Of a stretch of 64,000 nucleotides of DNA, positions 32,489-57,264 are shown piece by piece. A program made the translations under genes and the position numbers. Each line of letters opens with the position of its first letter. Position 1 is the stretch's first letter. The stretch lies in assembly GCA_024762335.1 (NCBI GenBank), contig JANTHO010000006.1, positions 1,912-65,911 of the forward strand, given 5' to 3'. The notes under the pieces are model-generated. The model saw only the letters and a list, made by a program, of their open reading frames with translations, had not been told where the DNA came from and did no database searches. The stretch comes from Acidimicrobiia bacterium. GTDB taxonomy: Bacteria; Actinomycetota; Acidimicrobiia; Spongiisociales; UBA5794.

Positions 32489-33472
32489 TCACGAATCAAT
32501 TGATCGGCGGACCGGGCCGGGACCGCGGAGCAGCCCCCAGGGGAGGCCGATTCCGTAGGACAGGTGCATGATTGCAGCGGCGAACATCACCCCGAGTGTC
32601 GAAGCCTCGGACCGCAGCCCGACGAACAGGAGCCATAGGAGCCACGCCCCGGCAAGTCCAGCGAGCCCCCACCAGAATCCGGTGGCGAAGGCGAGGATCC
32701 CGAAAGCGATCAGCCCCGCGACGAGGAGGGCGGGAGCGAGCGGACGCAATGATGGCAGCCTGCGATTCGCCCACAGCATCTCGGCCTTTCCCATGCCGTA
32801 ACGGAAGTATTGCTTCCACAATGTCCCGAGCGACGTTCGCGGTGCGTATTCGGTCCTGATGGCCGGGTCGACGATCACAGTCCTTCCCTCGGCCCGCCAC
32901 CTCGCATAGAGATCGGCGTCCTCGGAGGTGCCGGAGGGGAACATGCGAAAACCGCCGATGTCGAGAAGGTCCGAACGGCGGAAGGCACCCAGGTAGACGG
33001 TATCGACCTCCTCGCGACGGCGGGCATGATGGAACCGTGCCGGCAGCACCATCGGCGAGTTCATCGCACCGGCGACGGCGGCGGGGAAGCCGCTCAACGC
33101 TACCGGGTTCATGGGGCCGCCGACGGCGACCGCATTCGTCTCGCGAAGCGCGGCAACGGACCGGGCGACGTAATCGGGGGCGTATCGCGTGTGCCCGTCG
33201 GCACGAATGAGTATCTCCCCGGCGGCTCTCTCGGCGGCCAGGTTGAGACCCGGAGACTGACGGCGCTGAGGATTGTCTACCACGACGACGCGAGGCTCGT
33301 TCCCGACCCGGGCTTGTAGTCGTCGACCGGTGCCATCGCTTGACCCACCGTCGGCGACGACAATCTCGATGAATCCCTCGTACTCCTGACCCGTCAGATC
33401 GTCGAGGACGGCGTCGATGTTGTCGACCTCGTTGAGGACGGCGAGGATGATGCTGACGGGCGGCGGTGACAC
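32489..33472 (-). CDS. Glycosyltransferase family 2 with C-terminal TM helices (ExoA-like)
   Basis: VSIILAVLNEVDNIDAVLDDLTGQEYEGFIEIVVADGGSSDGT, followed by four hydrophobic segments at the C-terminus. Confidence 0.85.
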   Translation of the reverse strand: MSPPPVSIILAVLNEVDNIDAVLDDLTGQEYEGFIEIVVADGGSSDGTGRRLQARVGNEPRVVVVDNPQRRQSPGLNLAAERAAGEILIRADGHTRYAPDYVARSVAALRETNAVAVGGPMNPVALSGFPAAVAGAMNSPMVLPARFHHARRREEVDTVYLGAFRRSDLLDIGGFRMFPSGTSEDADLYARWRAEGRTVIVDPAIRTEYAPRTSLGTLWKQYFRYGMGKAEMLWANRRLPSLRPLAPALLVAGLIAFGILAFATGFWWGLAGLAGAWLLWLLFVGLRSEASTLGVMFAAAIMHLSYGIGLPWGLLRGPGPVRRSIDS

Positions 33473-33593
33473 GTTCCAGGAGACTACCGACCTCCGACGC
33501 TTTGACCGTCATGTGGCGGTTTCGCGACTCGGGACGAAGGGTCTTCGCAGTGTTCGAACTCAAGTCTTGCTCGCCGCGGTCGATAGAACACCA

Positions 33594-35573
33594 ATGGAGC
33601 TCACCTTCGTCGCGTCGCGCCGCCTGATCGGTAGTTTCGTTGTGCTGGCCCTCGCGTCGGCTCTCCTTGTCTTGGGCGGTCAACCGGCAGATGCAGCAGG
33701 CATCATCGAGGTACCGGCAGCAGGACGTGCGGCAGGGGGCATCTACTCGTCCGAGTGGCATGTGGCCGACGATTTCGACGCGCTCGCCGCGGCGACGGGC
33801 AAGAGAGTCACGTTCGGCGGAACATTCCACAACATCTTTGAGAACGACCACATCACCACGCCATCCTGGTCGAACACACGAGAGATCCTCGACGAGGTCT
33901 GGCGTGGTCGGGCGACCCCATTCGCGAACGTGGGCATAGATGCTTCAGCGTATCGAATCGCCCGGGGCGACTATGACGCCAAGATCGCAGAGTGGGCGAC
34001 GCATGTGAAGCAATACATCGACCTCGGTGGTGACCGCAGCGTCATCATCGCTCCCTTGCAGGAGATGAACTACGCCGGATCGAAGTGGGGATGCGACCCC
34101 GTCAACTACCAACTCGCCTACAAGAAGTTCGTGGACACGTTCCGTTCGATGGGGTTCGACGAGACGATGGTCCGATGGGCATTCGCTCCGAACAACTGGT
34201 CGTCACCAGGATGCGGGTCGATTGCCGACTACTACCCGGGTGATGGGTACGTCGACGTAATCGGCATCTCCGCCTACAACTGGGGGACATGTGTCGGTTC
34301 GGCATGGGAGACGCCCGCCGCCGTGTTCGGACCGGCTCTCACTGAGATCCGGGCGACCGTGAACGCGACGAAGCCCTACATCATCGCCCAGGTGGCTGCG
34401 CCCCGATCCGCGTCCTGCGGAGGGAACCAGGACGAGTGGGTCCGGGATGCCTTCGCCTACGTGACCGCCGACCCGAATGCTGTCGGCTTGGTCTACTTCA
34501 ATTTCCTCAAGGAGACAGATTGGCGTATCTGGACGAGGCCAACGGTCACAGCCGGATGGAGAGACGCGATGCTGCGACCCTCGACCGTCCACGAATGGCC
34601 GTTGACCTCCTGGTTCCGGCCCGGCACGTTGACGGTGTCGATGCCGGAGGGCGTCGGCAGCAATGTGACCGTTCTCGGGGGGCCGGCCGCGGTTTCCGAC
34701 GCCGCTCTCTATGACATCGTTGGAATGCTGGGCGGGATGCCAAATCGGATTTTCGGACCAAACCGATACAGCACGGCGGCCGCCGTATCAGGCGAGATCT
34801 TCCGACCGGATGTCCCGGCAGTGTTCGTCGCGACGGGAACAGGGTATGCGGATGCCCTCTCTGCTGGGGCAGCAGCCGCTCACCTTGATGGGCCGCTGCT
34901 CCTCGTCACGAAGGATTCCGTTCCGGCTGAGACACGAGCCGAGTTGAACCGTCTCCGACCACGAGCGATCTACGTCGCAGGCGGATCGGCGGTCATCTCG
35001 CAGAGTGTGGTGGATGATCTGGGCCGGTACGCAGGGACGGGCCGGGCCGTTCGCCTCGACGGAGCGAACCGGTACGGGACGGCCGCGGCCGTCGCCGTCG
35101 CGACGTTCCCGGACGGTGTCGGCACGATCTACCTCGCGACGGGCCTGGGCTTCGCTGACGCACTGTCGGCGGGAGCCGCTGCCGCCGCCACGGACGGAGC
35201 CGTCCTCCTGTCGACTCCAGATCGTCTGCCGATGGAGATCGCCGACGCTGTGCGAACTCTGAAACCCGGCGAGGTCGTGCTCGTCGGCGGAACCGCTGCG
35301 CTCTCACCGGCCATCGAGGATGAGTTGCGCAGGCTCGGTGTCAAAACGGTGCGGCGTATCGCCGGCTCCAACCGGTACACCACGTCGGCTGCCGTGTCGG
35401 CCGATGCATTCGGATCGGGTGCGGCCACGGCATTCCTGGCGACCGGGACAAGGTTCCCGGATGCCCTCGCCGGTGCCGCCGCAGCAGGTAAGCTTGGTGT
35501 CCCGCTGTTGCTGACCGATCCGACGAGTGTTCCCCCGGTGATACTCAACGAACTCGATCGTCTGTTCGGATAG
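33594..35573 (+). CDS. Secreted GH26-like glycoside hydrolase domain + 3 x CWB2 (cell wall binding repeat 2)
   Basis: Signal peptide LIGSFVVLALASALLVLGGQPADA. GH26-like LQEMNYAGSKWG and YVDVIGISAYNWG. Three CWB2 modules from about 34663 (PNRYSTAAAVS.., ANRYGTAAAVA.., SNRYTTSAAVS.., each with a (Y/F)(A/P)DAL(S/A)(A/G)(G/A)AAA ... LLL core). Confidence 0.85.
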   Translation: MELTFVASRRLIGSFVVLALASALLVLGGQPADAAGIIEVPAAGRAAGGIYSSEWHVADDFDALAAATGKRVTFGGTFHNIFENDHITTPSWSNTREILDEVWRGRATPFANVGIDASAYRIARGDYDAKIAEWATHVKQYIDLGGDRSVIIAPLQEMNYAGSKWGCDPVNYQLAYKKFVDTFRSMGFDETMVRWAFAPNNWSSPGCGSIADYYPGDGYVDVIGISAYNWGTCVGSAWETPAAVFGPALTEIRATVNATKPYIIAQVAAPRSASCGGNQDEWVRDAFAYVTADPNAVGLVYFNFLKETDWRIWTRPTVTAGWRDAMLRPSTVHEWPLTSWFRPGTLTVSMPEGVGSNVTVLGGPAAVSDAALYDIVGMLGGMPNRIFGPNRYSTAAAVSGEIFRPDVPAVFVATGTGYADALSAGAAAAHLDGPLLLVTKDSVPAETRAELNRLRPRAIYVAGGSAVISQSVVDDLGRYAGTGRAVRLDGANRYGTAAAVAVATFPDGVGTIYLATGLGFADALSAGAAAAATDGAVLLSTPDRLPMEIADAVRTLKPGEVVLVGGTAALSPAIEDELRRLGVKTVRRIAGSNRYTTSAAVSADAFGSGAATAFLATGTRFPDALAGAAAAGKLGVPLLLTDPTSVPPVILNELDRLFG

Positions 35574-35624
35574 GGACAACTACCCGGCCGCGACTTCGTC
35601 GGCTTGATTCCTACACTGCTCGCG

Positions 35625-36743
35625 ATGAAACCCCTTCTCAAGACCCTTATCGTTGCCGTCGCGCTCGCCACGATTGCTGCGGCGTGCTCAGCCGGAAACG
35701 CCACCGAAGCCGCGCCCGCCGCCACCACCACGTCCACCGAACCTGTGACGACATCCGAGGTGCCGACGACAGCGGAGACAACCTCGACGACATCGACATC
35801 GTCAACGTCGACCACGACGACCACCACCCTTGCCGCCGAAGTCGCGCCGACCATCAACGGCCTGCCAGGCGAAGACGGCACGGAGGATCGTCGGATCGTC
35901 GCCGTCAAAATCGACAACCACCCTGCGGCACGGCCGCAGTCGGGCATCGAGGCAGCGGACGCCGTCTATGAGGTTCTCGTCGAAGGCGGTCTCACGCGAT
36001 TCATCGGGATGTTCCAGCAGTCGGACAGCGACTACGTGGGTCCGAACCGTTCCGGTAGACCGACCGACTCCACGCTGATGGCGCCATTGGGCGCGGCGTT
36101 TCAGATTTCAGGGGCACAGTCCTGGGTACAGGACATCTTCAAACGGGACGGCGTCCACGTCAGCTACGACACTGGGGCGACGACGTGGCGGATGCACCAT
36201 CGTGTGGCACCGCACAACCTGTACACGTCGACGCTCAAGATCCGGGACTACGCGGATGCCCGCGGCTGGCCGGACGAGGCTCCATCCCCGTTGTTCGTCT
36301 ACGGGAACGAACCGACCGAAGCGTCGAGTTCTGCTGACACGATCACCCTCGATTGGTCGGATCACCCCAGCGTCGTATGGAAGTGGGACGGGGAACAGTA
36401 TCTGCGATTCAACGGCACGACTCCGCATGAGTGGGTTGACGACCGTGCCTCGGTCGACGAGGCCGGACAGATCGCGACCGACACCATCGTCGTGATCGAA
36501 GGACGCAAGTACACGGCATCTGACCCTGCCGGCAAAGGCTCGTCCGTTCCAGCCATCCACACCGTCGGCACCGGCGATGCGCTTGTCTTCTACGACGGCG
36601 GCATGTTCGAAGCGACGTGGACCCGGGATTCGATCGACGAACTGATCCGCATCGTGGACGACGAAGGCAATGACGTGATCCTGCCCGCGGGACGGATCTG
36701 GATCAACGTCTTTCCCGACAACCGCACCGTCGCCTGGGAGTAG
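35625..36743 (+). CDS. DUF3048-family lipoprotein (YerB-like)
   Basis: Lipobox LATIAAAC|S, a Thr/Ser-rich linker, then RRIVAVKIDNHPAARPQSGIEAADAVYEVLVEGGLTRFIGMF, typical of DUF3048. Confidence 0.85.
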   Translation: MKPLLKTLIVAVALATIAAACSAGNATEAAPAATTTSTEPVTTSEVPTTAETTSTTSTSSTSTTTTTTLAAEVAPTINGLPGEDGTEDRRIVAVKIDNHPAARPQSGIEAADAVYEVLVEGGLTRFIGMFQQSDSDYVGPNRSGRPTDSTLMAPLGAAFQISGAQSWVQDIFKRDGVHVSYDTGATTWRMHHRVAPHNLYTSTLKIRDYADARGWPDEAPSPLFVYGNEPTEASSSADTITLDWSDHPSVVWKWDGEQYLRFNGTTPHEWVDDRASVDEAGQIATDTIVVIEGRKYTASDPAGKGSSVPAIHTVGTGDALVFYDGGMFEATWTRDSIDELIRIVDDEGNDVILPAGRIWINVFPDNRTVAWE

Positions 36744-36746
36744 CCG

Positions 36747-38132
36747 ATGGGAGCGATCGCCGTCCTCTCCGAGACGATCCGACGTGGAGATCGAACGGCG
36801 GTCCAGGCGATCGGCGCCGCGCTCGATGTGGCCGAATCTTCACAACTCGACCTGAACGCCTTTACGACGATCGATCGCGGCGGCTCGCTCGATCGGGCGA
36901 CAGCGATTGATGGACAGATCGACACCGGTGGCGACGTGGGTCCACTTGCCGGGGTGCCTGTTGCGATCAAGGATCTGATCGACCAAGAAGGTACTCGGAC
37001 GACGAACGGCGCCGCTTTCCCGACCACGCCTGCGAAGGCTTCGGCAACCGTTGTGCGACGTCTCGAAGATGCCGGGGCGGTCATCATCGGACGAACCGGT
37101 CTTCACGAGTTCGCCTTCGGATTCACGTCCGAGAATCAGCACTTCGGCCCGGTCCGCAATCCGTGGGATCCGAACCTCTCGCCGGGCGGCTCCTCCGGCG
37201 GATCCGCCGCAGCGGTGGCCGCGGGGATCGTCTCCGTCGCCATCGGAACCGATACCGGCGGGTCGATCCGCGTTCCGGCCGCTCTGTGCGGTGTCGTGGG
37301 GCTCAAAGTCACCCACGGCCGCGTGCCGCTCACGGGCGTTACACCGCTTGCACAGTCTCTCGACACGGTGGGACCGATCGCACGCTCCGTGGCCGACCTC
37401 GCCGCCGTGTACATGGTCATCGCAGGCGACGATCCGTCGGATCCATGGTCGGCCCCGCTTTCGGTCGAGGCGCCCGGGGAAGCCCGCGACCCGTCGACAC
37501 TTCGTATCGGTATCCCGCGCCAGTGGATGGACGTCCCGACCGACGAGGCCACTCGCGACGCCTTCCGGAGTACGATCGACCACCTCCGATCGCTCGGAGC
37601 GACGGTCGAAACCATCGACGATCCGGCGCTCGAGAAGACCGATCCGGCCACGTTCGCAGCCGCAGCGGAAGTGTTCCGGGTGCATCGTGAGCGGTGGGAG
37701 AAACATCCCGACACCTACGGGTCCGACGTGGCCGAACGGCTCCGGCTGGCGGCGACCGTCGGTCTCGACACCGCGGTGGACGTTCTCGAATGGGATGCCG
37801 GCGCCCGTCATGCCCTCGCACGCATCTTCACTCGGTTCGATGTGCTCGCCACACCGACCGTGGGGTCGACGAGGAAGGTCATCGGAGACGACAAGATCGA
37901 CATCGACGGCGAGCGGTTCTCCCACCGCACGGTCATCGCCCAGTACACGTGGCCGGTGAACCGGGTGGGGAACCCCGCTCTTGCCCTCCCGATCAAGAGC
38001 GAAGGTACCCCGCCGGCGAGTCTCCAGCTGATCGGTCCCCGATGGGGTGAAGCTGCGCTCCTCGAGATCGGTCTCGGTCTCGAAGAGTCCGGGATCGTCC
38101 AGGTTCGCCAACCCCCCATTTACTTCGGATAG
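36747..38132 (+). CDS. Amidase (amidase-signature family)
   Basis: GVPVAIKDLI and GGSSGGSAAAVAAGIVSVAIGTDTGGSIRVPAALCG. Confidence 0.9.
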   Translation: MGAIAVLSETIRRGDRTAVQAIGAALDVAESSQLDLNAFTTIDRGGSLDRATAIDGQIDTGGDVGPLAGVPVAIKDLIDQEGTRTTNGAAFPTTPAKASATVVRRLEDAGAVIIGRTGLHEFAFGFTSENQHFGPVRNPWDPNLSPGGSSGGSAAAVAAGIVSVAIGTDTGGSIRVPAALCGVVGLKVTHGRVPLTGVTPLAQSLDTVGPIARSVADLAAVYMVIAGDDPSDPWSAPLSVEAPGEARDPSTLRIGIPRQWMDVPTDEATRDAFRSTIDHLRSLGATVETIDDPALEKTDPATFAAAAEVFRVHRERWEKHPDTYGSDVAERLRLAATVGLDTAVDVLEWDAGARHALARIFTRFDVLATPTVGSTRKVIGDDKIDIDGERFSHRTVIAQYTWPVNRVGNPALALPIKSEGTPPASLQLIGPRWGEAALLEIGLGLEESGIVQVRQPPIYFG

Positions 38133-38265
38133 GGCAACCTCTCTCCCTCTCATCCGCAATCGACCGACGGTCGACGGACATGTGATTTGAATGGCATAGA
38201 CTTGACCCCCGCACATCGGAGGACCGGCTCGTGCCGGACTCCAATCGCAATCAGGAGCAGACACC

Positions 38266-40140
38266 GTGTCATCAGACACCGAGACCGACGCACGGCCCAC
38301 ACCCGAGAAGATCGACCGGGTCGTGATCCGGTTCGCCGGCGACTCAGGCGACGGCATGCAGCTCGCAGGTACGCAGTTCACAGCGAGCTCGGCGATGTTC
38401 GGCAACGACCTCGCCACCCTGCCAAATTTCCCTTCCGAGATCCGGGCACCTGCCGGCACGATCGCCGGGGTATCGTCGTTCCAGGTCCACATTGCCGACT
38501 GGGACATTCTCACCCCCGGAGATCATCCCGACTGCCTCATCGCGATGAATCCTGCGGCCCTCAAAGCCAACCTCCACGACCTCAAACCCGGGGCGCTCAT
38601 CATCGTCAACGTCGACGCGTTCAACGAGCGGAACCTCGCCAAGGCCGGATACGAGTCGAACCCGCTCGAGGATGATTCGCTGCGCGCCTATCACGTGCTC
38701 ACTGCACCGATGGAGGAGTTGACGAAGAAGGCGCTCGTGGGCACCGGCGTCAAGGGTCGGGCGGTGCTCCGCTCGAAGAACTTCTTCGCACTCGGTCTGA
38801 TGTCATGGATGTATTCGCGGCCGCTCAAGCCGGTCGAGCAATGGATCACGAAGAAGTTCGGTGAGGACAATCCGGTCGCCGCCGCGAACCTCGCGGCGCT
38901 CCATGCCGGGTACAACTACGGCATCACCGCCGAAGGCTTCCACCACACATTCGAAGTTGAACCCGCGGCGCTCCCGAAGGGGGAGTACACGAACATCAGC
39001 GGCAACATCGCCACCGCATGGGGTCTGATCGCCGGTGCCCGGGCTGCGAACCTGCCGCTATTCCTCGGTTCCTACCCGATTACCCCGGCCACGTCGATTC
39101 TCGAAGAGCTGGCGAAGCAGAAGCACTTCGGGGTGAAGACCTTCCAGGCCGAAGATGAGATCGCCGGTGTCGGCAGCGCCGTCGGGGCCGCCTTCGCAGG
39201 AAACCTGGCTGCGACGACGACATCGGGTCCCGGTCTCGCTCTCAAGTCCGAGACGATCAGCCTTGCCTTCACTCTCGAACTGCCGCTCATCGTCATCGAT
39301 GTGCAGCGTGCCGGACCGTCGACCGGCATGCCGACGAAGGTCGAGCAATCCGATCTCCTCTTCGCCATGTACGGCCGTCACGGAGAGGCACCGCTCCCGG
39401 TGGTGTCGATCGCATCACCTGCCGATGCGTTCTCGGCGACGATGGAAGCCGTCCGAATCGCCACGAAGTACATGACGCCGGTGATCCTGCTCTCCGACGG
39501 CTACATCGCTAACTCGTCCGAACCGTGGAAGCTCCCGGACGTAGCGGACCTGCCGACCTTCCCCGTGACGTTCACGACCGAACCGAACCATGGTGACGAG
39601 TTCCTGCCGTACACGAGGGATCCGGAGACGCTCGCACGGCCGTGGGCCATCCCCGGCACACCGGGCCTCGAGCACCGCGTCGGCGGTCTCGAGAAGCACG
39701 ATGGCACCGGCAACGTCGCGTATGAGCCGGACAATCATCAGCTCATGACGGAGCTGCGGGCGGCGAAGATCGATGCGATCCGCAAAGACATCCCGCCGAT
39801 CAAGGTGCACGGCGACGCCGACTCGAAAATCCTCGTTCTCGGATGGGGATCGACCTTCTCGGCGATTCGTGCCGGAGTGCTCAACGCCCGGCGTAACGGG
39901 CGATCCGTGGCCCACGCACAGATCCGGCATCTCAACCCGCTTCCTCCCGACCTCGGCGATGTGCTCGAGGGACGGGAGGTGATCCTCATCCCGGAGTTGA
40001 ACAACGGGCAATTCGCCAGGATGATCCGGGCCGAGTACCTGATCGCCCCGAGATCGTTCGCCAAGATCCAGGGGGAGCCGTTCAAGGCGGACGAGATCGA
40101 AGAACAACTGAACGAGATCTGCCGGGAGATCAACTCATGA
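38266..40140 (+). CDS. korA: 2-oxoglutarate/2-oxoacid:ferredoxin oxidoreductase subunit alpha
   Basis: VVIRFAGDSGDGMQLAGTQFT, YPITPATSILEEL, FQAEDEIAGVGSAVGAAFAG. GTG start after CAGGAG. Confidence 0.95.
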   Translation: MSSDTETDARPTPEKIDRVVIRFAGDSGDGMQLAGTQFTASSAMFGNDLATLPNFPSEIRAPAGTIAGVSSFQVHIADWDILTPGDHPDCLIAMNPAALKANLHDLKPGALIIVNVDAFNERNLAKAGYESNPLEDDSLRAYHVLTAPMEELTKKALVGTGVKGRAVLRSKNFFALGLMSWMYSRPLKPVEQWITKKFGEDNPVAAANLAALHAGYNYGITAEGFHHTFEVEPAALPKGEYTNISGNIATAWGLIAGARAANLPLFLGSYPITPATSILEELAKQKHFGVKTFQAEDEIAGVGSAVGAAFAGNLAATTTSGPGLALKSETISLAFTLELPLIVIDVQRAGPSTGMPTKVEQSDLLFAMYGRHGEAPLPVVSIASPADAFSATMEAVRIATKYMTPVILLSDGYIANSSEPWKLPDVADLPTFPVTFTTEPNHGDEFLPYTRDPETLARPWAIPGTPGLEHRVGGLEKHDGTGNVAYEPDNHQLMTELRAAKIDAIRKDIPPIKVHGDADSKILVLGWGSTFSAIRAGVLNARRNGRSVAHAQIRHLNPLPPDLGDVLEGREVILIPELNNGQFARMIRAEYLIAPRSFAKIQGEPFKADEIEEQLNEICREINS

Positions 40141-41153
40141 ACATCGACGTCAAGCAATACACGAGGGCAGATTTCCAGTCGAATCAGGAGGTCCGCTGGT
40201 GCCCGGGGTGCGGCGACTACACGATCCTCGCTTCGGTGCAGACGTTCCTCGCCGAACTCGGCATCGACCGGGAGAAGCACGTGTTCATCTCGGGTATCGG
40301 CTGCTCGAGCCGGTTCCCGTACTACATGAACACCTACGGGATGCACAGCATTCACGGGCGGGCTCCGGCAATCGCTTCCGGTGTGGCTGCGGCGAACCCG
40401 GACCTCACCGTGTGGGTGATCACCGGCGACGGTGACGCACTGTCGATCGGCGGCAACCACCTCATCCACGCCTTGCGTCGCAACATCAACCTGAAGATCT
40501 TGCTGTTCAACAACCAGATCTACGGGCTGACGAAGGGCCAATACTCGCCGACCTCGGAGCAGGGGAAGCGGACGAAGACATCGCCGATGGGTTCCATCGA
40601 TTACCCGTTCAACCCGGTGAGCCTCGCCCTCGGAGCAGAAGCGACGTTCGTCGCACGCACGCTCGACATGGACCGGAAGCACACGGCCGAGATCCTCGCT
40701 GCCGCCGCCGAGCATCGCGGGACGGCGTTCATCGAGTTCTATCAGAACTGCAACGTTTTCAACGACAAGGCGTTCATCGAGCTGACGAGCCGGGAGACTC
40801 GCGACGACAATCGCGTCTATCTCGATCACGGCAAACCGATCCTGTTCGGCCCCGACAATGAGTTCGGGATCCGGATCGGACCGACCGGCGCCGAGATCGT
40901 CGAGGTGTCGAAGGTAGGCATCGACTCCATCCAGGTCCACAACGCTAAGGATCCCGAACCGGGTGTCGCCTTCGCCCTGAGCCGTCTTTCGCGCGGCCCG
41001 CACGGTCCGACCCCGCTCGGGATCTTCCGCGACGTGGAACGTCCCGTCTACGAGGACTTGCTCGTCGGTCAGATCGAAGAGGCCCAAGCCCAGAAGGGCA
41101 CCGGCGATCTCGCCGACCTGCTCCGCTCAACGGGAACCTGGACCACCAACTAG
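40137..41153 (+). CDS. korB: 2-oxoglutarate/2-oxoacid:ferredoxin oxidoreductase subunit beta
   Basis: WCPGCGDYTILASVQ, SGIGCSSRFPYY, GDGDALSIGGNHLIH (TPP-binding). ATGA overlap with korA. Confidence 0.95.
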   Translation: MNIDVKQYTRADFQSNQEVRWCPGCGDYTILASVQTFLAELGIDREKHVFISGIGCSSRFPYYMNTYGMHSIHGRAPAIASGVAAANPDLTVWVITGDGDALSIGGNHLIHALRRNINLKILLFNNQIYGLTKGQYSPTSEQGKRTKTSPMGSIDYPFNPVSLALGAEATFVARTLDMDRKHTAEILAAAAEHRGTAFIEFYQNCNVFNDKAFIELTSRETRDDNRVYLDHGKPILFGPDNEFGIRIGPTGAEIVEVSKVGIDSIQVHNAKDPEPGVAFALSRLSRGPHGPTPLGIFRDVERPVYEDLLVGQIEEAQAQKGTGDLADLLRSTGTWTTN

Positions 41154-41155
41154 CG

Positions 41156-41220
41156 CACACCCAGGCGTCTGGCGTTGATATGAATGAAATACGGTCTGTG
41201 GCGACACCAGACTGGGCAGG
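41156..41220 (+). promoter_or_regulatory. Conserved ~65-bp leader element, copy A (between the korB stop and the AlkD-like start)
   Basis: About 75-80% identical to 56593-56660. Contains the inverted repeat GTCTGGCG (41167-41174) / CACCAGAC (41205-41212) and an internal alternative arm GTCTG (41193-41197). Confidence 0.45.
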
Positions 41221-41222
41221 GA

Positions 41223-41915
41223 ATGGGCTTGAACACTGATCGCCTCGCCGCGTTCGTGGGGGGACGGCTCGCCGCGGCGGCCGATCCGGACAAGGCCGGG
41301 CCGATGGCGGCATACATGAAGACCGACATGCCGTTCTACGGCGTGCAGAAGGCCGGACGGGTGCCGATCCTCCGCGAGGCGGTCGCCGGGTTCCCAGCGA
41401 AGACGAGAGATGAGTATCGCGCCGCCGTTCTCGCCCTCTGGCGGCAACCTCACCGGGAGGAGAAGTATCTCGCCATCGGGTACGCGGCGGCCTTCCCCCG
41501 CTTCGTCACGCTCTCGTCTGTCTCGCTCTACCGAAAGATGATCGTCGAAGGTGCCTGGTGGGATTTCGTCGACGGGATCGCCACCAGCCTTGTCGGTGAG
41601 GTTCTCCTCAACCAGCGGGAGCGGATGACACCGAGGATCAGGGCGTGGATCGACGATCCGGATCTGTGGCTCCGCAGAACGGCGATCATCTCACAACTCG
41701 GGCACAAGGATCGGACCGATGAGGATTTGTTGTTCGAGGCGTGCGAACGGCGAATGTACGAACGGGAGTTCTTCATCCGCAAGGCGATCGGCTGGGCGCT
41801 GCGCGACTACGCCAGGACCGCTCCCGAAGCCGTCGCTGCATTCGTGACCGAACACCGAGTGGGTCTGTCGGGGTTGTCGTACAGAGAGGCCACGAAGCAC
41901 CTCGACCTCGGATAG
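41223..41915 (+). CDS. DNA alkylation repair protein (AlkD-like HEAT-repeat family)
   Basis: GPMAAYMKTDMPFYGVQKAGR, DPDLWLRRTAIISQL, REFFIRKAIGWALRDYAR. An alternative ATG at 41184 lies inside the conserved leader, so I prefer 41223. Confidence 0.8.
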   Translation: MGLNTDRLAAFVGGRLAAAADPDKAGPMAAYMKTDMPFYGVQKAGRVPILREAVAGFPAKTRDEYRAAVLALWRQPHREEKYLAIGYAAAFPRFVTLSSVSLYRKMIVEGAWWDFVDGIATSLVGEVLLNQRERMTPRIRAWIDDPDLWLRRTAIISQLGHKDRTDEDLLFEACERRMYEREFFIRKAIGWALRDYARTAPEAVAAFVTEHRVGLSGLSYREATKHLDLG

Positions 41916-41946
41916 GCCGGCTCGCATGGACGGCGGCGCTTCCCGT

Positions 41947-42045
41947 GGCTTCACGGGCTTCGACGTCGAGCGAGATGAGAAAGTGATCCGGTCAACGAAA
42001 GCCGGAGACGCGATCGACGTCGTGCTCATGGCGCGTAGGCCGTGA
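41947..42045 (+). pseudogene. 3' fragment of a SAM methyltransferase gene (paralog of 56667..57263)
   Basis: Reads GFTGFDVERDEKVIRSTKAGDAIDVVLMARRP*, against FAGFDVERNEKVIRSTNAGDAIDIVLVARKP* at 57165-57263. No 5' part is present. Confidence 0.8.
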
Positions 42046-42230
42046 ATCGGATACGCGTTGTACGGATGGTCAACCGGCAGCGCGTCACATCCGTCCAACC
42101 CCCGCCAGGGATCGGGCCGAGAACCCTGCCGTCCTCCTACGTCACGCAGCGGTTGTCACCTTGTACGCAGACCATGCCTTCGGGGACGGTGGCAGCGGAC
42201 TCGTCGCACTTCGCCGTCGACGTGGATCTC
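42046..42230 (-). pseudogene. 3' fragment of a sodX-type signal peptidase gene (paralog of 57265..57735)
   Basis: The minus strand reads PEGMVCVQGDNRCVT*EDGRVLGPIP, against PEGMVWVLGDNRCGSSVDSRVLGPIP in the full copy. It has an in-frame TAG (42137-42139) and a ~30-bp internal deletion. Confidence 0.75.
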
Positions 42231-42269
42231 ACGGACCTGTTGCGTTCAACGGGGACGTGGACGACGAAC
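42225..42269 (+). pseudogene. Fragment matching the last 15 codons of korB
   Basis: DLTDLLRSTGTWTTN against DLADLLRSTGTWTTN* at 41106-41150. 36 of 45 nt are identical, and 7 of the 9 differences are at third codon positions. Confidence 0.7.
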
Positions 42270-42345
42270 GATCAGCCGGGAATCGATGTCGCCACTCTGC
42301 CGCCGCGGTTCCGTGGGGACGGAGTTGAGTTCCTACCGTCCGGCT

Positions 42346-42801
42346 TCAGATGCCGAGCCAGTATGCAATGTCATCGCCGAGGGGCTTGTACTGTGGACAC
42401 AGGTACCGGGGTGCCGCCGAGAGGATGAGCCCGTATGTTGCAACCTCCGTGGAGTCGAGATGGCGGAGATCTTGGGTCCAGAGAACCCGGATCGCGTAGT
42501 GGGCATCCCTTCCCTGGTTGAAGAACCCCTCCAGACTCGCACAGACGTCGTCGCCGGCGACGAGGATCTCGTTGCCGGTCACCGTGCTGCCGAGCGGGAG
42601 CGATCCGTTGACGGCGGCAACGTAGGTGTCGCGAGCTGCCGGATCGCCGTATCGGGGGAGGGTTGATGTGGTCGTTGCCAACGTGGCCGCGGCTTCCTGC
42701 GTGGGGCCGCTCGCGGTCGACCGGCCGATTGCGATTCCCACGAGCAGCGCCACAACGATCGCGACCGCCGCTCCGATCCATGTCCATCGTTCTCGTGTCA
42801 T
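42346..42801 (-). CDS. Membrane-anchored hypothetical protein (N-terminal TM helix; two-Cys extracytoplasmic domain, possibly DUF732-like)
   Basis: Start trimmed to MTRERWTWIGAAVAIVVALLVGIAIG. The C-terminal domain has CASLEGFF ... APRYLCPQY. Confidence 0.6.
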   Translation of the reverse strand: MTRERWTWIGAAVAIVVALLVGIAIGRSTASGPTQEAAATLATTTSTLPRYGDPAARDTYVAAVNGSLPLGSTVTGNEILVAGDDVCASLEGFFNQGRDAHYAIRVLWTQDLRHLDSTEVATYGLILSAAPRYLCPQYKPLGDDIAYWLGI

Positions 42802-42980
42802 GGGGCCACGATACTGCCGTCCCGGATCCCCAGGGCATGCAGGGTCCCGTCCACCGACGATTGAATGGACAATGGCGAAATGAGCGTTACCGTGCAGGTA
42901 CCAAACGGCGGATAGTCCACGGGTTCGAGATGAAGGCCGGTAGGAAGGCGCACTCCAAGCCAGGAGGAAGGCCCGAGAAG

Positions 42981-45900
42981 ATGTCAATCCGAACCGATCG
43001 TCCCGGCCTCAGGGAACTACTCATCGCAACACTGTTCCTGCCGTTCCTACTCGGTTTCACCACGGCCGGGGGAGACTCCGACCTGACGCACGACACATAC
43101 ACCCTCACATTCACTGCCGTGGACGGTGCAGGCCCGGGCGCCTTCGAATCGGCCGTTGTCGAGTCCACGTTCACGATGTTCGGACTCACGTGGACGGGCA
43201 TCGCGCCCGAAGAGGTGTGGTATCGCGCTTCTCCTGCCACCGGACGCTGGTCGGATTGGACATCCTTCGACGTGTCGTCGGACGATCTTCCCGACCCCGG
43301 TGGGAACGAGTCCGACTACAGGCGGTCGAGCACTGATCTGATATACGCAGGCCCGAATGAGCAGATCCAGTTCCGTCTCTCGGGGAACGTGCCGCGCGAC
43401 GTCGAACTCGTTGTGTTCGACACTTCGGGAGGCGTCGACGCCGCGAATTCACCGTTCGTCGAGGAGCCGGAACTGTCTTTGTCCGAGATGTCGGTTCCGT
43501 CCATGCCCGTCATTCGACCGCGTACCGACTGGGACCCCACCAATCGATGTCCCCCCCGTGAGATTCCCGAGGAGATCCAGGTCACGACGGCGATCGTTCA
43601 CCACACGGGCGGCACGAACCGGGCCTACTACGCGTCTGAGGTCCCGAACATCATCCTCGGATACTGCCTCTATCACCGCAACACGCTCGAATTCGACGAC
43701 ATCGCCTACAACTTCCTGATCGACCGATTCGGTGGCATCTGGGAAGGTCGGGCCGGCGGCATCGACAAGGGAATCCGGGGAGGCCACGCCAAGGGTTTCA
43801 GCAGTTACTCGACCGGCATCGTGATGATCGGGAACTTCGAAGGGGCGAGCCCGACGTGGGCTCAGCGGGCCGCGCTCGAACACCTCCTTGCATGGAAACT
43901 CAGCGTCCACAATCTTGATCCTCTCGGCATGACCAACCTCATCTCGATGGGCTCCTACAAGTACGACGAGGGCGTGCCGGTCACTCTCAACACGATCAGC
44001 GGACATCGCGATGTCCAGGCGACGGCATGCCCGGGAATCTACGCCTACAACCTGCTGCCGACCTTCAGGTCCGACGTCGCTTCCGTTTGGAGACCACCAG
44101 CGGTCGACTACTACGCGAATCCCGTCACCGGGGACTTCGACGGTGACGGCGCAGAAGAAGGAGCCGTCTACCGACGCACAGACGGAACTTGGTGGGTCTA
44201 TGACGGAGGGTCGTCGAATATTGCGCTCGATGGACCCGACGGGCAGGCCGTGGATGGTGCGATCGGTGCCGATGTGGACGGAGACGGGTCGGACGAGATC
44301 GTGGTCCGATCCGGCGCGTCCGTGAGCTTCTTGAATCTGTCCGAGGGCGCACTCGCGTCGACCGGAGTTGGTTCTCTGGGATCGGCATCAGATTGGTCCG
44401 TGGACGTCGGGGATGTGGACGGCGACGGACACGAGGATGCTGTGTTCGTGGATGGATCCGGATCCGTTCGGGTCTTGTCCGCGGGAGCCATCGCCCCGTG
44501 GGGTTCCATCGGAGCCGGCCATCAGCTCTCAGCGATCGGTGATTTCGATGGCGACGGTAGAGATGATCTCGCAGGTCTCCGCTCGACCGGCGCAGTCGAC
44601 GTGGCGCTGTCCAACGGTACCGGCTTCGGGTCCGCCGGCGTTTGGGGCGACGCAGGGCCGGAGGGCGGTTGGCAGTACCTGGTCGCAGGCGATCTCGACG
44701 GCGACGGGGATGACGACGTGGCAGCGTTCCGGTCTTCTACGAATACGTGGTATGGGCTGCGGTCGAACACGTCTTTGTTCGCTTCCATGCGTCCCATCGA
44801 GACGCCGACGCTGGACCATTGGAGCGAGGCCTTCCCCTTCGACTACCAGGACGACGGAATCGTCGAAGTAGTCGCGCTCAACGCCTACACCGGGACCTGG
44901 CATCTGGGGCGATTCGACGGATTCGAACCGGTGTTCACCCGCCTCGAAGATGCGCCGCATCGCACCACTGTTGTTCGCAACGAATCCGGGGAGGGAACCT
45001 CGTACCTCTCATGGTTCGGTCAGGAATTCTCGTGGGAAGAGACGGACTTGGGCTACGGCGTGGGTGATGAAGCGGACGCAACACGCCGAATCTTCGGCGC
45101 ATCACGCTACGAGTCGGCGGCCCGGATCTCCCGCGCGGCATTCGCCTCCGCAGATGTTGTCTTCGTTGGAACCGGTGAGAGATATCCGGATGCGCTGACG
45201 GGAGGTTCGGCGGCAGTGCGGCTCGACGCGCCGATGTTGCTCACCTCCTCGGTTTCGCTTCCAGAGAGCACGCGTGCCGAGATCGAGCGACTCCACCCCG
45301 ATCGCATCGTCCTGCTCGGCGGACCGGCGGCGGTCTCAACAGCAGTTGAGGCGGAACTCGCGGCTCTGGCACCGGACGGTGTGCTGAGGATTGGTGGAAC
45401 CGATCGCTATGAAACGGCGGCGATGATCTCGCGAACCTACTTCGCTCCATCCGCCGGGACCGTGTACGTCGCTACGGGGCTGAACTTCCCCGACGCCCTC
45501 GCCGGTGTCCCGGGAGCCGGCAGCGCCGACGCCCCGATCTTGCTGGTCCGTACCGGCTCGGTGCCCGCTACAACGGCGGCTGAAATCCGCCGGCTGGCTC
45601 CCAGCGAGATCGTCATTCTCGGCGGCCCTGTGGCCGTCTCCGAGTCCGTTGCTCAGTCGCTCACGAGTTACGCTCCGACGGTTCGGCGACTGTACGGTCA
45701 CGATCGCTATGGAACGGCCGCGGCGATCTCGGCAGAGGGTTTCGCCTCGGGAGCGGACATCGCATATATCGCTGTTGGAACCAACTTCCCGGATGCGGTC
45801 GCTGCGGGACCGGCGGCGGCACATCTCGGGGGAGTGTTGTTGCTGTCTCGGAGCGACACAGCGACAGCTCAGACGACGGGGGAGCTCCGTAGGCTTCGCG

Positions 45901-46019
45901 TTACCCGGATCACCGTCATCGGGGACGAGAACATCATTTCAGAGGAGGCGATCGATGATCTCGAAGGCATCGGTATCGGCGGTCTAACCAGCCGGATGTC
46001 GAACTTGCCGCGTCCGTAG
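42981..46019 (+). CDS. Surface protein: N-acetylmuramoyl-L-alanine amidase (Amidase_2/PGRP type) + FG-GAP/VCBS-like repeats + 3 x CWB2
   Basis: RBS CAGGAGGAAG before the ATG at 42981, then an N-terminal hydrophobic segment. Amidase motifs TAIVHHTGGTN ... DIAYNFLIDRFGGIWEGR ... ISGHRDVQATACPG. Five DxDGDG loops (GDFDGDG, ADVDGDG, GDVDGDG, GDFDGDG, GDLDGDG). Three CWB2 modules from about 45083. Confidence 0.9.
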   Translation: MSIRTDRPGLRELLIATLFLPFLLGFTTAGGDSDLTHDTYTLTFTAVDGAGPGAFESAVVESTFTMFGLTWTGIAPEEVWYRASPATGRWSDWTSFDVSSDDLPDPGGNESDYRRSSTDLIYAGPNEQIQFRLSGNVPRDVELVVFDTSGGVDAANSPFVEEPELSLSEMSVPSMPVIRPRTDWDPTNRCPPREIPEEIQVTTAIVHHTGGTNRAYYASEVPNIILGYCLYHRNTLEFDDIAYNFLIDRFGGIWEGRAGGIDKGIRGGHAKGFSSYSTGIVMIGNFEGASPTWAQRAALEHLLAWKLSVHNLDPLGMTNLISMGSYKYDEGVPVTLNTISGHRDVQATACPGIYAYNLLPTFRSDVASVWRPPAVDYYANPVTGDFDGDGAEEGAVYRRTDGTWWVYDGGSSNIALDGPDGQAVDGAIGADVDGDGSDEIVVRSGASVSFLNLSEGALASTGVGSLGSASDWSVDVGDVDGDGHEDAVFVDGSGSVRVLSAGAIAPWGSIGAGHQLSAIGDFDGDGRDDLAGLRSTGAVDVALSNGTGFGSAGVWGDAGPEGGWQYLVAGDLDGDGDDDVAAFRSSTNTWYGLRSNTSLFASMRPIETPTLDHWSEAFPFDYQDDGIVEVVALNAYTGTWHLGRFDGFEPVFTRLEDAPHRTTVVRNESGEGTSYLSWFGQEFSWEETDLGYGVGDEADATRRIFGASRYESAARISRAAFASADVVFVGTGERYPDALTGGSAAVRLDAPMLLTSSVSLPESTRAEIERLHPDRIVLLGGPAAVSTAVEAELAALAPDGVLRIGGTDRYETAAMISRTYFAPSAGTVYVATGLNFPDALAGVPGAGSADAPILLVRTGSVPATTAAEIRRLAPSEIVILGGPVAVSESVAQSLTSYAPTVRRLYGHDRYGTAAAISAEGFASGADIAYIAVGTNFPDAVAAGPAAAHLGGVLLLSRSDTATAQTTGELRRLRVTRITVIGDENIISEEAIDDLEGIGIGGLTSRMSNLPRP

Positions 46020-46025
46020 GCGTAT

Positions 46026-46991
46026 TCAGGGTTCGCGTCGCCGTGAGAATCGCACGATGTCTTCGAAGCCGAAAGCCACTGCAGGTAGCGCGAGAGCGAT
46101 CCAGCCGGTCGCTCGGATGAGTGCTGCAGCGAGTGCCCCGACGGCGGCGGGGATGCCGAACAGAGCAGCCAGCGCAGCAAGTCCTAATTCCTGAATTCCG
46201 AGGTTTCCCGGTGTCAGGACGATGAAACTGCTCGCTTGGAGAAGCGCATAGATGGCGATCGCTTCGCCGATTCCGAGATTCCAGTCGATCACGCCGAACA
46301 CGGCCCGGTACAGCGTCACGACGATGATGATCGTGACGAACCAAACAGCGATGAACCGCAGGATGAGACGGACATCTTGCAGCGCTGTCAATGCGGCGGT
46401 TGCAACGCGCCGTGCCGCATCGATGATCCCCGCCGGCGACTCTCGATCCTGCAGCGGGCGGACGAGGCGCCGGATCGCGAACGGTGCACCTGCGACCACA
46501 CCCGCGGCGAGGATGAGGACGAGTGGTGCTGGAAGACCGAAAATCGTCTGTGACGGCGATTGCACGGCGAGGAACGGGGCGGCGACGGCGAGGCTTGTTG
46601 TGACACTCATGATCACGAAAGCGGCCATCCCCCCACCGAAGTCGGCGATGGCGATACCGAATTCACGTTTCAGTTTGAGCGCTCGATACACGTTCCCGCT
46701 CTGAGGGACGAACGTGTTCAGGAAACGTCCGACGGCGAAGATCTTGAACCAGCGCACCGAAGCGATGCTGACATCGGAGGAGGATTCGATGACGATCTTC
46801 TGCCGTTGGCTTTCAGGCAGCAGGTAGAGGACCTGGAGAACGAGAATGACGATCAGGTCGGTCGGGTCGAGATTCGCGAACGTGTCGAGCGCCGGTCGAT
46901 CCCGGAGGATCACCCAGACGACGAGACCGAGTGTCGTTACGACGATGACACCGGACACCCACCGGGGGACGTGGAAGCCGTCGGTGGTCAC
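46026..46991 (-). CDS. Flippase-like / UPF0104 (lysyl-PG synthase TM-region family) membrane protein
   Basis: Eight hydrophobic segments and the motif FVPQSGNVYRALKLKREFGI. GTGA overlap with the upstream GT4 gene. Confidence 0.8.
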   Translation of the reverse strand: MTTDGFHVPRWVSGVIVVTTLGLVVWVILRDRPALDTFANLDPTDLIVILVLQVLYLLPESQRQKIVIESSSDVSIASVRWFKIFAVGRFLNTFVPQSGNVYRALKLKREFGIAIADFGGGMAAFVIMSVTTSLAVAAPFLAVQSPSQTIFGLPAPLVLILAAGVVAGAPFAIRRLVRPLQDRESPAGIIDAARRVATAALTALQDVRLILRFIAVWFVTIIIVVTLYRAVFGVIDWNLGIGEAIAIYALLQASSFIVLTPGNLGIQELGLAALAALFGIPAAVGALAAALIRATGWIALALPAVAFGFEDIVRFSRRREP

Positions 46992-48076
46992 GATACGGCC
47001 GCAACGCTTCGGAGCACCTCAAGCATGGCCGCTACCGAGTCGTTCCATTCGAACGTGCGCCTGACGAACTCGCGGCCGGCGATACCCATGTGCGATCGAG
47101 CGTCCGGGTCGGATGCAAGGTCGACAACGGCGGCGGCGACGGCGACGGGATCCTGTGGTGGTACGAGACATGCGGTAACTCCGTCGATGCACACCTCCCG
47201 AATACCTCCGACGTCGGTCGAGACCACCGGTATGCCCGTAGCCGAGCCTTCGAGTATCACCACACCGAACGACTCGGGTACGATCGTCATGTTGAGGAGA
47301 ACGTCAAACGTTCGCATCAGTTCGGGAATGTAGCCGTGTTCAACGCGTCCGAGGAAGTCCACAGCCTCCTCGACGCCAAGGCTCGCAGTGAGGGACTCAA
47401 GATTCTGTCTCAAGCTCCCTTCACCGACGATTGTGAGGCGCGCATCCGAACGATGGGCGAGGATGGCTGGCATCGCCCGGATCGCGTATTCGATGCCATA
47501 CCGCTGCTCGAGCGACTTGACGAGTCCGATCGACAAGCCGCCGGGTACCGCCGGTATCTCCGGCGGGTGGAACATCTCCGTATCGACACCGAACGGCACG
47601 ACGGTGACCTCTGCGTCGGGGGCCAGCGTCCGTACCCATCCGGCGAGGTAGTGGCTGGCGACGGTGACGCGATCGGCCTTCGCTAGTGCCATGCGGTTGA
47701 TGGTTCGCAGCGTTCGGCTCTGGGCCACACCGTCGGCAGGGATGATGTCAGATCCCCATGCGGTTATCACGACCGGATTGCTGCCGGCGATTCTTGCGAT
47801 GGTGCCGCTGGTCGAAACGAAGTGCGCGTTCACAACATCCGGATTGCAGCGGGCGACGATGCCTCTGGCCGCTGCCGCCAGTCGGGCGTAGGAGAGCAAC
47901 GACCAGGTCGACGACGGGTCATTGACCCGTCCGAGAGACACCGTGTGCACGGGGATGCCGGGAATCGAGGCACTCCGTATCGAAATGATCTCGACAGGGT
48001 GTCCGGCGTCTCGGTATGCCATCGCCCAGCGCTGAAGGTGCGGCGCCCTTGCGTTTCCGATCAGACAGATGCGCAT
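46988..48076 (-). CDS. Glycosyltransferase family 4 (group 1)
   Basis: MRICLIGNARAPHLQRW ... VPESFGVVILEGSATGIPVVSTDVGGIREV (E-x7-E region). Confidence 0.9.
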   Translation of the reverse strand: MRICLIGNARAPHLQRWAMAYRDAGHPVEIISIRSASIPGIPVHTVSLGRVNDPSSTWSLLSYARLAAAARGIVARCNPDVVNAHFVSTSGTIARIAGSNPVVITAWGSDIIPADGVAQSRTLRTINRMALAKADRVTVASHYLAGWVRTLAPDAEVTVVPFGVDTEMFHPPEIPAVPGGLSIGLVKSLEQRYGIEYAIRAMPAILAHRSDARLTIVGEGSLRQNLESLTASLGVEEAVDFLGRVEHGYIPELMRTFDVLLNMTIVPESFGVVILEGSATGIPVVSTDVGGIREVCIDGVTACLVPPQDPVAVAAAVVDLASDPDARSHMGIAGREFVRRTFEWNDSVAAMLEVLRSVAAVS

Positions 48077-49107
48077 CAGGGCCGTCGGTACGATTCGAAG
48101 TGTTGGAGCATCCAGGTTGTGAGATCGACCTTGTCGCGCAGCAGAGCCTTTCGGGCATCGGCCGCCGACACCTGGGCATCGTCGTCCATGAACCCGATGG
48201 TGGCATCGATGGCAGCATCGAAGTCGGTGGGGTCGAAGTGGCGCACTAGCCCGTAGCGCCGTTCGAGGTCGTCGACGTAGCCGCGACCGGTTACCGCGAT
48301 GTACACCGCTGGTGTCCCAAGGACGGCGGCCTCGGAAGCCATCGTCGCAGAATTGCCGACGACCACGTCGGCGAAAGCCAACAGGTGGTGGATCGAGCGC
48401 GCCGGGCCGTCGTACCGGTACGGCGCGAGGTCGTCGGGTAGAGCGGTCTCGGAGCTGATCAACACGCTCCCCCGATCGACCAGGCGCGAGACGAGAAGGC
48501 GTTTCTGCTCGTCGATGAGAGCGAGCTCTGCCCGGTCATGCGAGGACTGTCCCGAGACGAATCGGATAACTGAGAATGGTGTGGAGATGTCGATGCCGAG
48601 TTGTTTCACGAGCTCAGGATCCGGTGTGAACCGATCGGGGTGGAGATAGGCGAGTTCGTGATAGCTCGGGTAGGTGATGTGGTTGCCTCTCACGGGTGCG
48701 GCGTAGCAGTCGGGTGTGACGACTTCCGTTGCGAGGGGGTAGACGACACGGTTCGTGGTCGTCGCCACTTCGGTGTCGTAAAACACAATGGAAGGGATCC
48801 TCAACAGTCGACCGACCGGAGCGATCGAAACGCCCATGATGCCGATCATCACGTCGGGGCGGAACGTGCGAGCGACACGGCCGAGATGGATGGTGCGACC
48901 CGCCCACTCACGAGTCAGACCCATCGGTCCGGTGGCCTGTGTGGAGATCACCGAGTGTCCGAGTCCGTATTCCTCGAGTAGCTCGACGGTGACGTCCTTG
49001 TCGCGGGCTGTGATGAGCACCTCACTGCCACGGGCGCGTGCCTCCGCGATCAGGTTGCGGAAGACGTGCACGTGGGCGGGGTGGAGAATGTCGACGAGGA
49101 TTCGCAT
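48076..49107 (-). CDS. DUF354-family protein (predicted GT-B glycosyltransferase/epimerase-like)
   Basis: MRILVDILHPAHVHVFRNLIAEARARGSEVLITARDKDVTVELLEEYG is the typical DUF354 N-terminus. Start trimmed to the ATG at 49107. Its stop overlaps the GT4 start by 1 nt (TGATG). Confidence 0.8.
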   Translation of the reverse strand: MRILVDILHPAHVHVFRNLIAEARARGSEVLITARDKDVTVELLEEYGLGHSVISTQATGPMGLTREWAGRTIHLGRVARTFRPDVMIGIMGVSIAPVGRLLRIPSIVFYDTEVATTTNRVVYPLATEVVTPDCYAAPVRGNHITYPSYHELAYLHPDRFTPDPELVKQLGIDISTPFSVIRFVSGQSSHDRAELALIDEQKRLLVSRLVDRGSVLISSETALPDDLAPYRYDGPARSIHHLLAFADVVVGNSATMASEAAVLGTPAVYIAVTGRGYVDDLERRYGLVRHFDPTDFDAAIDATIGFMDDDAQVSAADARKALLRDKVDLTTWMLQHFESYRRP

Positions 49108-49156
49108 GGATTGAAACGACCCTACCAGTGGTCGATTGCCGATCCGAGACGGAAGG

Positions 49157-52956: not shown

Positions 52957-53046
52957 GCGGTAGTTTCCTGATGGTGGGTGGGGCGAGGATAGTGCGATCG
53001 GGCACAATCCTTTAGAACTCAAGATCTGCGGCGAAGGAGCCGAAAC

Positions 53047-54564: not shown

Positions 54565-54749
54565 CCGGCGAGTTCGGGTCATCTTGACCTGTGGTAACTC
54601 ACGGCGTACGGCGGCGTCAACGGTGATGCCTCAGGTCTCCTTTCAAGCTTCGGACCCGCTGCGGGCTCCTGTGATGCCCCGGGCCGCCCAACCATCGCTC
54701 TGGACCGTCTCGTAGAGGGACGGTCCCGTCCGGACAACGCCATGGTGCC

Positions 54750-56660: not shown

Positions 56661-56666
56661 GCGCTC

Positions 56667-57263: not shown

Positions 57264-57264
57264 A

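Follow-up and report, generated by a model that had tools for sequence, protein, structure and literature searches.

A decayed duplication-type joint between korB and a cell-envelope island in an uncultured Acidimicrobiia bacterium

Duplications can arise independently of RecA at microhomology-mediated joints, as in fork stalling and template switching (FoSTeS) and microhomology-mediated break-induced replication (MMBIR) (review, PMC2583991; bacterial examples, PMC11111574, PMC3411829). Homology-facilitated illegitimate recombination (HFIR; de Vries and Wackernagel 2002; Prudhomme et al. 2002; Meier and Wackernagel 2003) is summarised in PMC3240628, and C-terminal displacement in rhs and type VI secretion system (T6SS) effector-immunity arrays leaves displaced 3' ends behind (PMC5361080). 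The locus described here lies in a stretch of 64,000 nucleotides (the window) on contig JANTHO010000006.1 of a high-GC (guanine plus cytosine), uncultured Acidimicrobiia bacterium whose nearest public relatives are Acidimicrobiia metagenome-assembled genomes. Between positions 41106 and 42272 the window holds second copies, at about 80% identity, of the 3' end of korB, an intergenic hairpin, a methyltransferase gene (MT) and the 3' half of sodX. Sequence comparisons suggest that, on balance, this scar was probably left by an old duplicative event within the lineage that was followed by reciprocal loss.

The repeated parts run in the order korB tail, hairpin, MT, sodX 3' half, and then the same again. 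The intact korB gene (40137–41153, + strand) encodes the beta subunit of a 2-oxoacid:ferredoxin oxidoreductase (Pfam TPP_enzyme_C) with a product of 338 aa, equal in length to those of the relatives L171–L173. Its final 45 nt (41106–41150, +) constitute the functional tail. The left joint (41154–41214, +) follows and is composed of about 12 nt of a lost DUF402 3' end and hairpin copy A, whose outer stem TCTGGCG...CACCAGA spans 41168–41211. Next come an alkD-like DNA alkylation repair gene (41223–41915, +; PF08713, E = 7e-60), which is the sole alkD copy within the window, a 39-aa in-frame methyltransferase remnant identified by translation (MT', 41926–42045, +) and, on the minus strand, a remnant of the 3' half of the gene for the nickel superoxide dismutase maturation peptidase (sodX', 42047–42230). 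The GATCTC at 42225–42230 belongs both to sodX' and to a second korB tail (korB', 42225–42272, +), the relic of the original korB 3' end.

The second copy lies beyond a 14-kb cell-envelope island. It opens with about 22 nt of the DUF402 3' end and hairpin copy B (together 56580–56651, +; hairpin at 56605–56648) and continues with the site of an alkD-sized deletion (56652–56666, +), the intact MT gene for an S-adenosylmethionine-dependent methyltransferase of TehB/TPMT-like type (56667–57263, +; Pfam) and the intact S26 peptidase gene sodX (57265–57735, −; Pfam). The nickel superoxide dismutase gene sodN (57856–58284, +; Pfam Sod_Ni) stands next to it.

Self-comparison by blastn aligned 41949–42212 with 57167–57436 (78.5% identity, E = 6e-61), 41158–41214 with 56595–56651 (79%, E = 9e-8) and 42225–42269 with 41106–41150 (36 of 45 nt, E = 5e-5; a pair recovered also as repeat family D1), along with a weaker match of 41912–41947 to 56653–56688 (75%) that spans the MT start codon. 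The three stronger matches bear out the duplicated pieces that an earlier note had read from this DNA, namely the korB tail, a "leader" at 41156–41220 and 56593–56660, and the methyltransferase tail with sodX; the leader is the hairpin plus a few nucleotides of the DUF402 3' end.

Copy 1 is heavily eroded. MT' translates to MDGGASRGFTGFDVERDEKVIRSTKAGDAIDVVLMARRP followed by a stop and consists of codons 1–8 joined in frame to the last 31, with a 477-bp internal deletion between two GAC codons; its retained start codon is absent from the earlier note. In public assemblies (L086, L087) MT' is annotated as a 39-aa protein-coding gene, and this gene call is an annotation artefact of a pseudogene. 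Base-level alignment and translation of sodX' revealed a 32-bp deletion, a 6-bp deletion, an in-frame TAG and the disappearance of the stop codon, in agreement with the TAG and the deletion of about 30 bp claimed previously. In the korB' tail, the stop codon TAG has become GAT. Copy 2 is also incomplete. The hairpin and the MT start are contiguous there (56595–56688) while alkD separates them in copy 1, so about 0.7 kb, the size of alkD, is missing from copy 2. Neither window copy has a DUF402 gene. The loss of alkD from copy 2 and of DUF402 from both copies adds to what the earlier note had described.

The junction between sodX' and korB' is of the duplication type, with downstream sequence (y, in sodX) fused to upstream sequence (x, in korB) in direct orientation and the material between x and y present twice. 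The x-site (41106–41115, +) and the y-site (57481–57490) both read GATCTCGCCG, and the GATCTC of the joint occurs in all three sequences. On the + strand, korB and sodX have this 10-mer as their single longest common run. Breakpoints paired at random would land in a run of 10 nt or more with P = 2.3e-5; for 6 nt or more, P = 2.9e-3. The 10-bp microhomology proposed in the earlier note is confirmed. To judge from outgroups, in which the sodX of L176 has the identical 10-mer and the korB of L177 has CTCGCCGAC, the string is ancestral at both sites. No marks of a mobile element accompany the joint. According to Pfam, alkD and pieces of genes make up the whole insert. A search for terminal inverted repeats gave none, and the flanking repeat is a 45–48-nt gene tail and not a short exact target-site duplication.

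The joint was also recovered from other assemblies. An exact-protein look-up found same-species contigs in Logan SRR19843165, SRR19843166, ERR14856882, ERR14861406 and ERR14861412 and in Joint Genome Institute (JGI) 3300019850, all of which supply contigs that cover the joint at 99.8–100% identity, and also in Logan ERR14856879. Contig L086 corresponds to window positions 39383–42252 at 99.8% and L087 to 41767–52801 at 100%, while L088–L090 cross the joint as well at 99.86–99.9%; the window alkD protein is P0001 in L086. The scar, carried by at least five independent metagenome assemblies, is confirmed as real and not an assembly artefact.

Relatives were compared by tblastn of all window open reading frames against 80 alkD-anchored and 80 korB-anchored loci. 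In L171–L175 the order is DUF3048, amidase, korA, korB, the gene of a small membrane protein on the opposite strand (smallTM) and an amidase_CWB2 gene. A protein search placed homologues of the small membrane protein, at 58–74% identity, directly 3' of intact korB in these five loci, and tblastn of the same protein against the alkD-anchored loci gave no match. The site is empty in L171–L174, where korB is intact at 338 aa and ends 76 nt before smallTM. At the DNA level these four loci are collinear with window positions 33743–41157 and 42228–46022, and about 49 nt of their contigs match both window korB tails. Since both flanks are collinear, the window represents an insertion of 41158–42227 together with a duplicated korB tail. 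From position and sequence, the korB' tail and the spacer behind it (42225–42348) are the positional orthologue of the original korB end.

The other end of the region is documented by the nearest clade (korA 82–84%, alkD 66–78% amino-acid identity), represented by L092, L093, L095, L099 and L103–L106. Its order is DUF3048, amidase, korA, korB, a 175-aa gene, alkD, MT, sodX (−), sodN and murJ (−), without an island, and the 175-aa gene encodes a DUF402 protein (PF04167). In L096 and L107, island genes in the window's order and orientation (VanW−, M23+, YkuD−) lie directly upstream of DUF402-alkD-MT-sodX. The alkD-MT-sodX-sodN block therefore follows the island in these two loci and follows korB-DUF402 in eight other relatives, and alkD is directly 5' of MT in all relatives. 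The synteny comparison that the earlier note had suggested as a check has thus yielded both an empty site and a conserved alkD-MT neighborhood. From these arrangements, the ancestral order is read as korB-(island)-DUF402-hairpin-alkD-MT-sodX-sodN. A scan of GTDB with korB returned only relatives at or below 73% amino-acid identity, which are informative for deep synteny only.

An alignment of the MT tail and the sodX 3' half (286 sites, 12 outgroup relatives) was used to compare the fragment in copy 1 with the intact sequence in copy 2. The two are 80% identical, whereas the outgroups are 56–63% identical to the fragment and 64–74% identical to the intact copy. Because their mutual identity exceeds that of either one to the 12 outgroups, the two copies are sisters with the fragment on a long branch. 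The closest MT homologues (70% and 68%) had been considered as nearer relatives of one or the other copy; both proved to be outgroups. When changes were polarised by the outgroup majority, 39 fell on the fragment branch (12, 17 and 10 at codon positions one to three) and 9 on the intact branch (1, 2 and 6), with 6 ambiguous. First and second positions together thus changed 29 times in the fragment and 3 times in the intact copy. Within sodX' the fragment branch carries 9, 15 and 7 changes by codon position, and the raw differences between sodX' and sodX are 10, 16 and 16. Tajima relative-rate tests with eight outgroups gave 33–39 unique changes for the fragment and 8–13 for the intact copy (p = 1e-5 to 2e-3). 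Provided that the rate at third positions is at least about half the neutral rate, constraint on the fragment was absent for about half or more of the period since the copies diverged, and most simply for the whole of it. This is contrary to the earlier note, which held that both copies had been functional for most of their divergence.

The korB tails had been part of the basis of that view. They differ at nine sites, seven of them third positions, with one amino-acid change, and the earlier count of 7/9 was reproduced. Both tails share GAT and TCA, which are not present in L172 and L177. The korB' relic has 6–8 private changes including the stop loss, and the functional tail has 2–3, all synonymous. 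The 7/9 pattern is compatible with one live and one dead copy and, at a rough binomial p of about 0.05, is not decisive.

Further comparisons produced no sign of foreign DNA. GC content is flat at 60–65%, with no compositional signal. Sliding identity of korAB against L172 showed no step and no sign of a crossover. The alkD gene of copy 1 and the MT gene of copy 2 rank the relatives identically, and in none of the sampled organisms are there intact genes nearer to the fragment than those of the window itself. Any donor must have been close to identical when the event took place, so import from a relative diverged by about 20% is not needed. A same-genome origin would fit copies that are sisters, one of which has been neutral over most or all of their divergence; a nearly identical external donor would look alike.

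The history that emerges as probable, if by no means securely so, begins with an ancestor in which the order was korA-korB-smallTM(−)-island-DUF402-hairpin-alkD-MT-sodX(−)-sodN. The segment from the hairpin through alkD and MT to the 3' half of sodX would have been copied, within the same lineage, from about 15 kb downstream to a point just past the korB stop codon. Synthesis or joining would then have restarted 48 nt upstream in korB at GATCTCGCCG, duplicating the korB tail. As to the recombination mechanism, two courses may be envisaged. The first is a pair of microhomology-mediated template switches (FoSTeS/MMBIR), and the second a tandem duplication spanning korB (x) to sodX (y), after which smallTM, the island and DUF402 would have been deleted from the first copy. 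The template-switch version would require the fewest events, because in it DUF402 and the island would have been absent from copy 1 from the start. In either case sodX' and the downstream korB' tail would have been dead on arrival, MT in copy 1 would have lost its 477 bp internally, and alkD and DUF402 would have been deleted from copy 2. Redundancy would have been settled reciprocally in this way, with alkD kept only in copy 1, MT and sodX kept only in copy 2, and DUF402 gone. The outcome is an alkD gene 70 nt downstream of korB and an MT gene fused to the former alkD leader.

Several points weigh against an in-lineage duplicative event. The first joint, between the korB stop and the DUF402 3' end, is too diverged to reveal microhomology. 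With so few sites, a functional period of the fragment covering up to about half of the divergence time is still allowed, and the sister relation of the korB tails depends on 2–3 common sites in 48 nt. Coverage of L171–L174 ends before the right end of the island. Several later deletions are required under every model. In L177 and L178 korB is followed after 34 nt by alkD, with neither DUF402 nor island, and thus an island-less donor arrangement is not hypothetical.

The leading alternative is HFIR from a very close strain of the same species that had no island and the order korB-hairpin-alkD-MT-sodX. With korAB as the homology anchor, donor sodX would have been joined to recipient korB at GATCTCGCCG, inserting 1.1 kb and duplicating the korB tail. 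Such an origin is possible and is entertained here as a tentative second choice. The topology fits one homologous and one microhomology end, and the 6–10 nt found here fall within the 3–10 bp typical of HFIR junctions (PMC3240628). Relatives without the island do exist, either with korB-DUF402-alkD (L092, L093, L095, L099, L103–L106) or with the compact arrangement of L177/L178, and a single event would account for alkD being in copy 1 and for the island not being there. On the other hand, the fragment bears no trace of purifying selection since the split, so the donor would have to be near-identical in sequence despite two differences, a 14-kb island and a DUF402 deletion. Because the outgroup lineage L171–L175 also has the island, the donor lineage must have lost it. 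In addition, korAB has no identity step, and the recipient deletion of similar size that is usual in HFIR is not seen; the recipient is complete on both sides and its korB tail is duplicated.

The reverse transfer would bring in the island itself. A 15-kb piece (korB tail-smallTM-island-hairpin-MT-sodX and onward) would have entered an island-less recipient with sodX/sodN as the homology anchor, and recipient sodX would have been joined to donor korB. This model shares its topology with the others, the presence of the island is patchy among relatives, and the right flank (sodN, a 120-aa protein gene, Uma2, murJ) resembles that of L097, whose overlapping contig L096 has island genes. Import of the island is nevertheless improbable. 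It demands the same near-identity of the donor, composition is flat, and the korB' tail with its spacer is orthologous to the korB end of L171–L174, while the two tails are sisters relative to that lineage, which makes the island-bearing state the older one in this lineage.

The history given in the earlier note, in which a homologous segment came from a relative diverged by about 20%, both copies worked for most of the divergence and inactivation was recent, is held to be very improbable. It had in its favor the third-position bias and single amino-acid change of the korB tails and replacements in the MT tail that are mostly conservative. The first- and second-position counts and the highly significant relative-rate tests oppose it, as does the spread of the sodX' differences over all codon positions. 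Synonymous changes in the functional tail, together with the 6–8 changes of the relic, among them the stop loss, account for the korB-tail pattern, and no sampled organism offers intact genes more similar to the fragment than those of the window. What stands of that account is the rearrangement scar with a duplication-type joint at a 6–10-nt microhomology and the dismissal of a recent tandem duplication; the diverged donor is not supported, since the copies are sisters and the fragment decayed neutrally.

The idea that two strains living together were assembled into a chimera from the metagenome, or that the similarities arose by chance, can be given next to no credence, for although the source organism is uncultured and L086 stops 27 nt beyond the joint, independent assemblies from different projects cross it, deletions and a stop codon are unexpected in the gene of a live strain, and the blast E-values are far too low for chance.

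If the duplicative event within the lineage is accepted, it may be asked if its outcome was selected. The duplication and reciprocal loss could represent a re-wiring by which alkD, once behind a 14-kb island, became co-expressed with the korAB operon and MT was given the alkD leader and hairpin. This proposal is doubtful; if true, it would show in a natural case how a gene can be relocated with no mobile element involved.

The hairpin that heads each copy is part of the older gene order. L091–L093 and L096–L098 have a hairpin, GTCTGGCG...CGCCAGAC, behind DUF402 and just 5' of alkD, while in L095, L099 and L103–L107 it is missing and the DUF402 stop overlaps the alkD start. The inverted repeat TCTGGCG-N30-C(A/G)CCAGA has two occurrences only in the window (41168–41211 and 56605–56648). 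Compared with shuffled sequences, the window copies fold no better (z = −0.3 and −1.2), whereas the L093 version is strong (z = −6.3). A search of the whole window against Rfam at the gathering threshold gave no match, so the putative leader is not a known RNA family, and neither a sigma-70-like promoter nor an intrinsic terminator was found in 40900–42900. The hairpin could be an operator or a terminator. A separate GC-rich hairpin, CCGCGGTTCCGTGGGGACGGAG..., was observed in the spacer (42273–42348) that parts the korB' relic from the convergent smallTM gene. Part of this spacer, CGGTTCCGTGG-GACGGAG, is kept in L171–L174, and the hairpin probably served korB and smallTM as their original bidirectional terminator. 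A direct repeat (D2, 41246–41267 and 42301–42322) was considered as a meaningful feature and set aside as probably due to chance.

The cell-envelope island (42349–56483) lies between korB and the alkD/MT region. It begins with smallTM (42349–42801, −), which is convergent with korB, and the remainder (42987–56483) was assigned by Pfam and has the same gene order in L175, L171, L107 and L096. Besides the small membrane protein it encodes five CWB2-repeat enzymes with three repeats each (amidase_2/FG-GAP, S8, VanW, M23 and YkuD) and includes genes with LPG_synthase_TM, GT4 and DUF354 domains. The island is syntenic in L171–L175, L096 and L107 and absent from the site in L092, L093, L095, L099 and L103–L106. 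It was considered as a mobile element and rejected, as integrase and flanking repeats are both missing, its GC matches that of the flanks, and several lineages have it in synteny.

Upstream of korB, Pfam identified a CWB2/GH26 protein (33390–35573), DUF3048 (35604–36743), an amidase (36747–38132) and korA (38266–40140). Four genes lie between sodN and murJ (58360–61123), encoding a 120-aa protein without a Pfam match, a major facilitator superfamily (MFS) transporter, a Uma2-family endonuclease-like protein and a 23S rRNA intervening-sequence protein. Of these, L097 also has the genes for the 120-aa and Uma2 proteins, and sodN adjoins murJ directly in L099 and L104. The alkD gene of L177 (228–572) and L178 (1–348), which come from two different samples, encodes 114 aa with residues ~97–194 missing in frame; alkD and DUF402 seem to have been repeatedly eroded at this locus. 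Deeper relatives among the Acidimicrobiia (L112, L122, L130, L134, L145, L156 and the GTDB loci L002–L023) have the DUF3048-amidase-korA-korB block turned around with respect to alkD-MT-sodX-sodN, with DUF3048 divergent from alkD. The window and its nearest clade have the opposite block orientation, so an older inversion in place has occurred.

The locus is a well-resolved natural case of bacterial chromosome remodelling without mobile elements. The microhomology joint, the empty site of relatives and the complementary loss of alkD on one side and of MT and sodX on the other can still be read together. With live and dead copies side by side, the region holds an internal clock by which the neutral decay and the deletion bias of uncultured Acidimicrobiia could be calibrated. 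It also calls for caution in annotation, given that the public 39-aa gene at 41926–42045 is a methyltransferase relic.

When set against the described systems, the scar is a new instance of a known event type and not a new kind of system. Like the rhs and T6SS arrays, in which C-terminal displacement pushes an old gene 3' end downstream, an incoming or duplicated segment has left an orphan fragment that persists. Those arrays diversify toxin modules through repeated events, whereas here the sequence type of the housekeeping korB is unchanged and what was orphaned is a relic of 45 nt without a cargo function. HFIR is similar in having one homologous side, the other joined at 3–10 bp of microhomology, and an insert of about 1 kb. 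It differs in that there is no evidence here of a foreign insert or of a recipient deletion, and the illegitimate joint falls inside sequence that is homologous between the partners, which results in duplication and not replacement.

The closest likeness is to the microhomology-mediated duplication and template-switch joints. As in such joints, the end of a segment (the sodX 3' half) is fused to its beginning (the korB tail) on a common string of 6–10 nt, mobile-element parts are missing, and a 48-nt flanking duplication of the korB tail stands beside a copy from about 15 kb away. The duplications known from the laboratory are young, identical and unstable. The window scar, in contrast, is old, with about 15% neutral change on the dead branch, is fixed in the species and has been reduced until each gene survives once.

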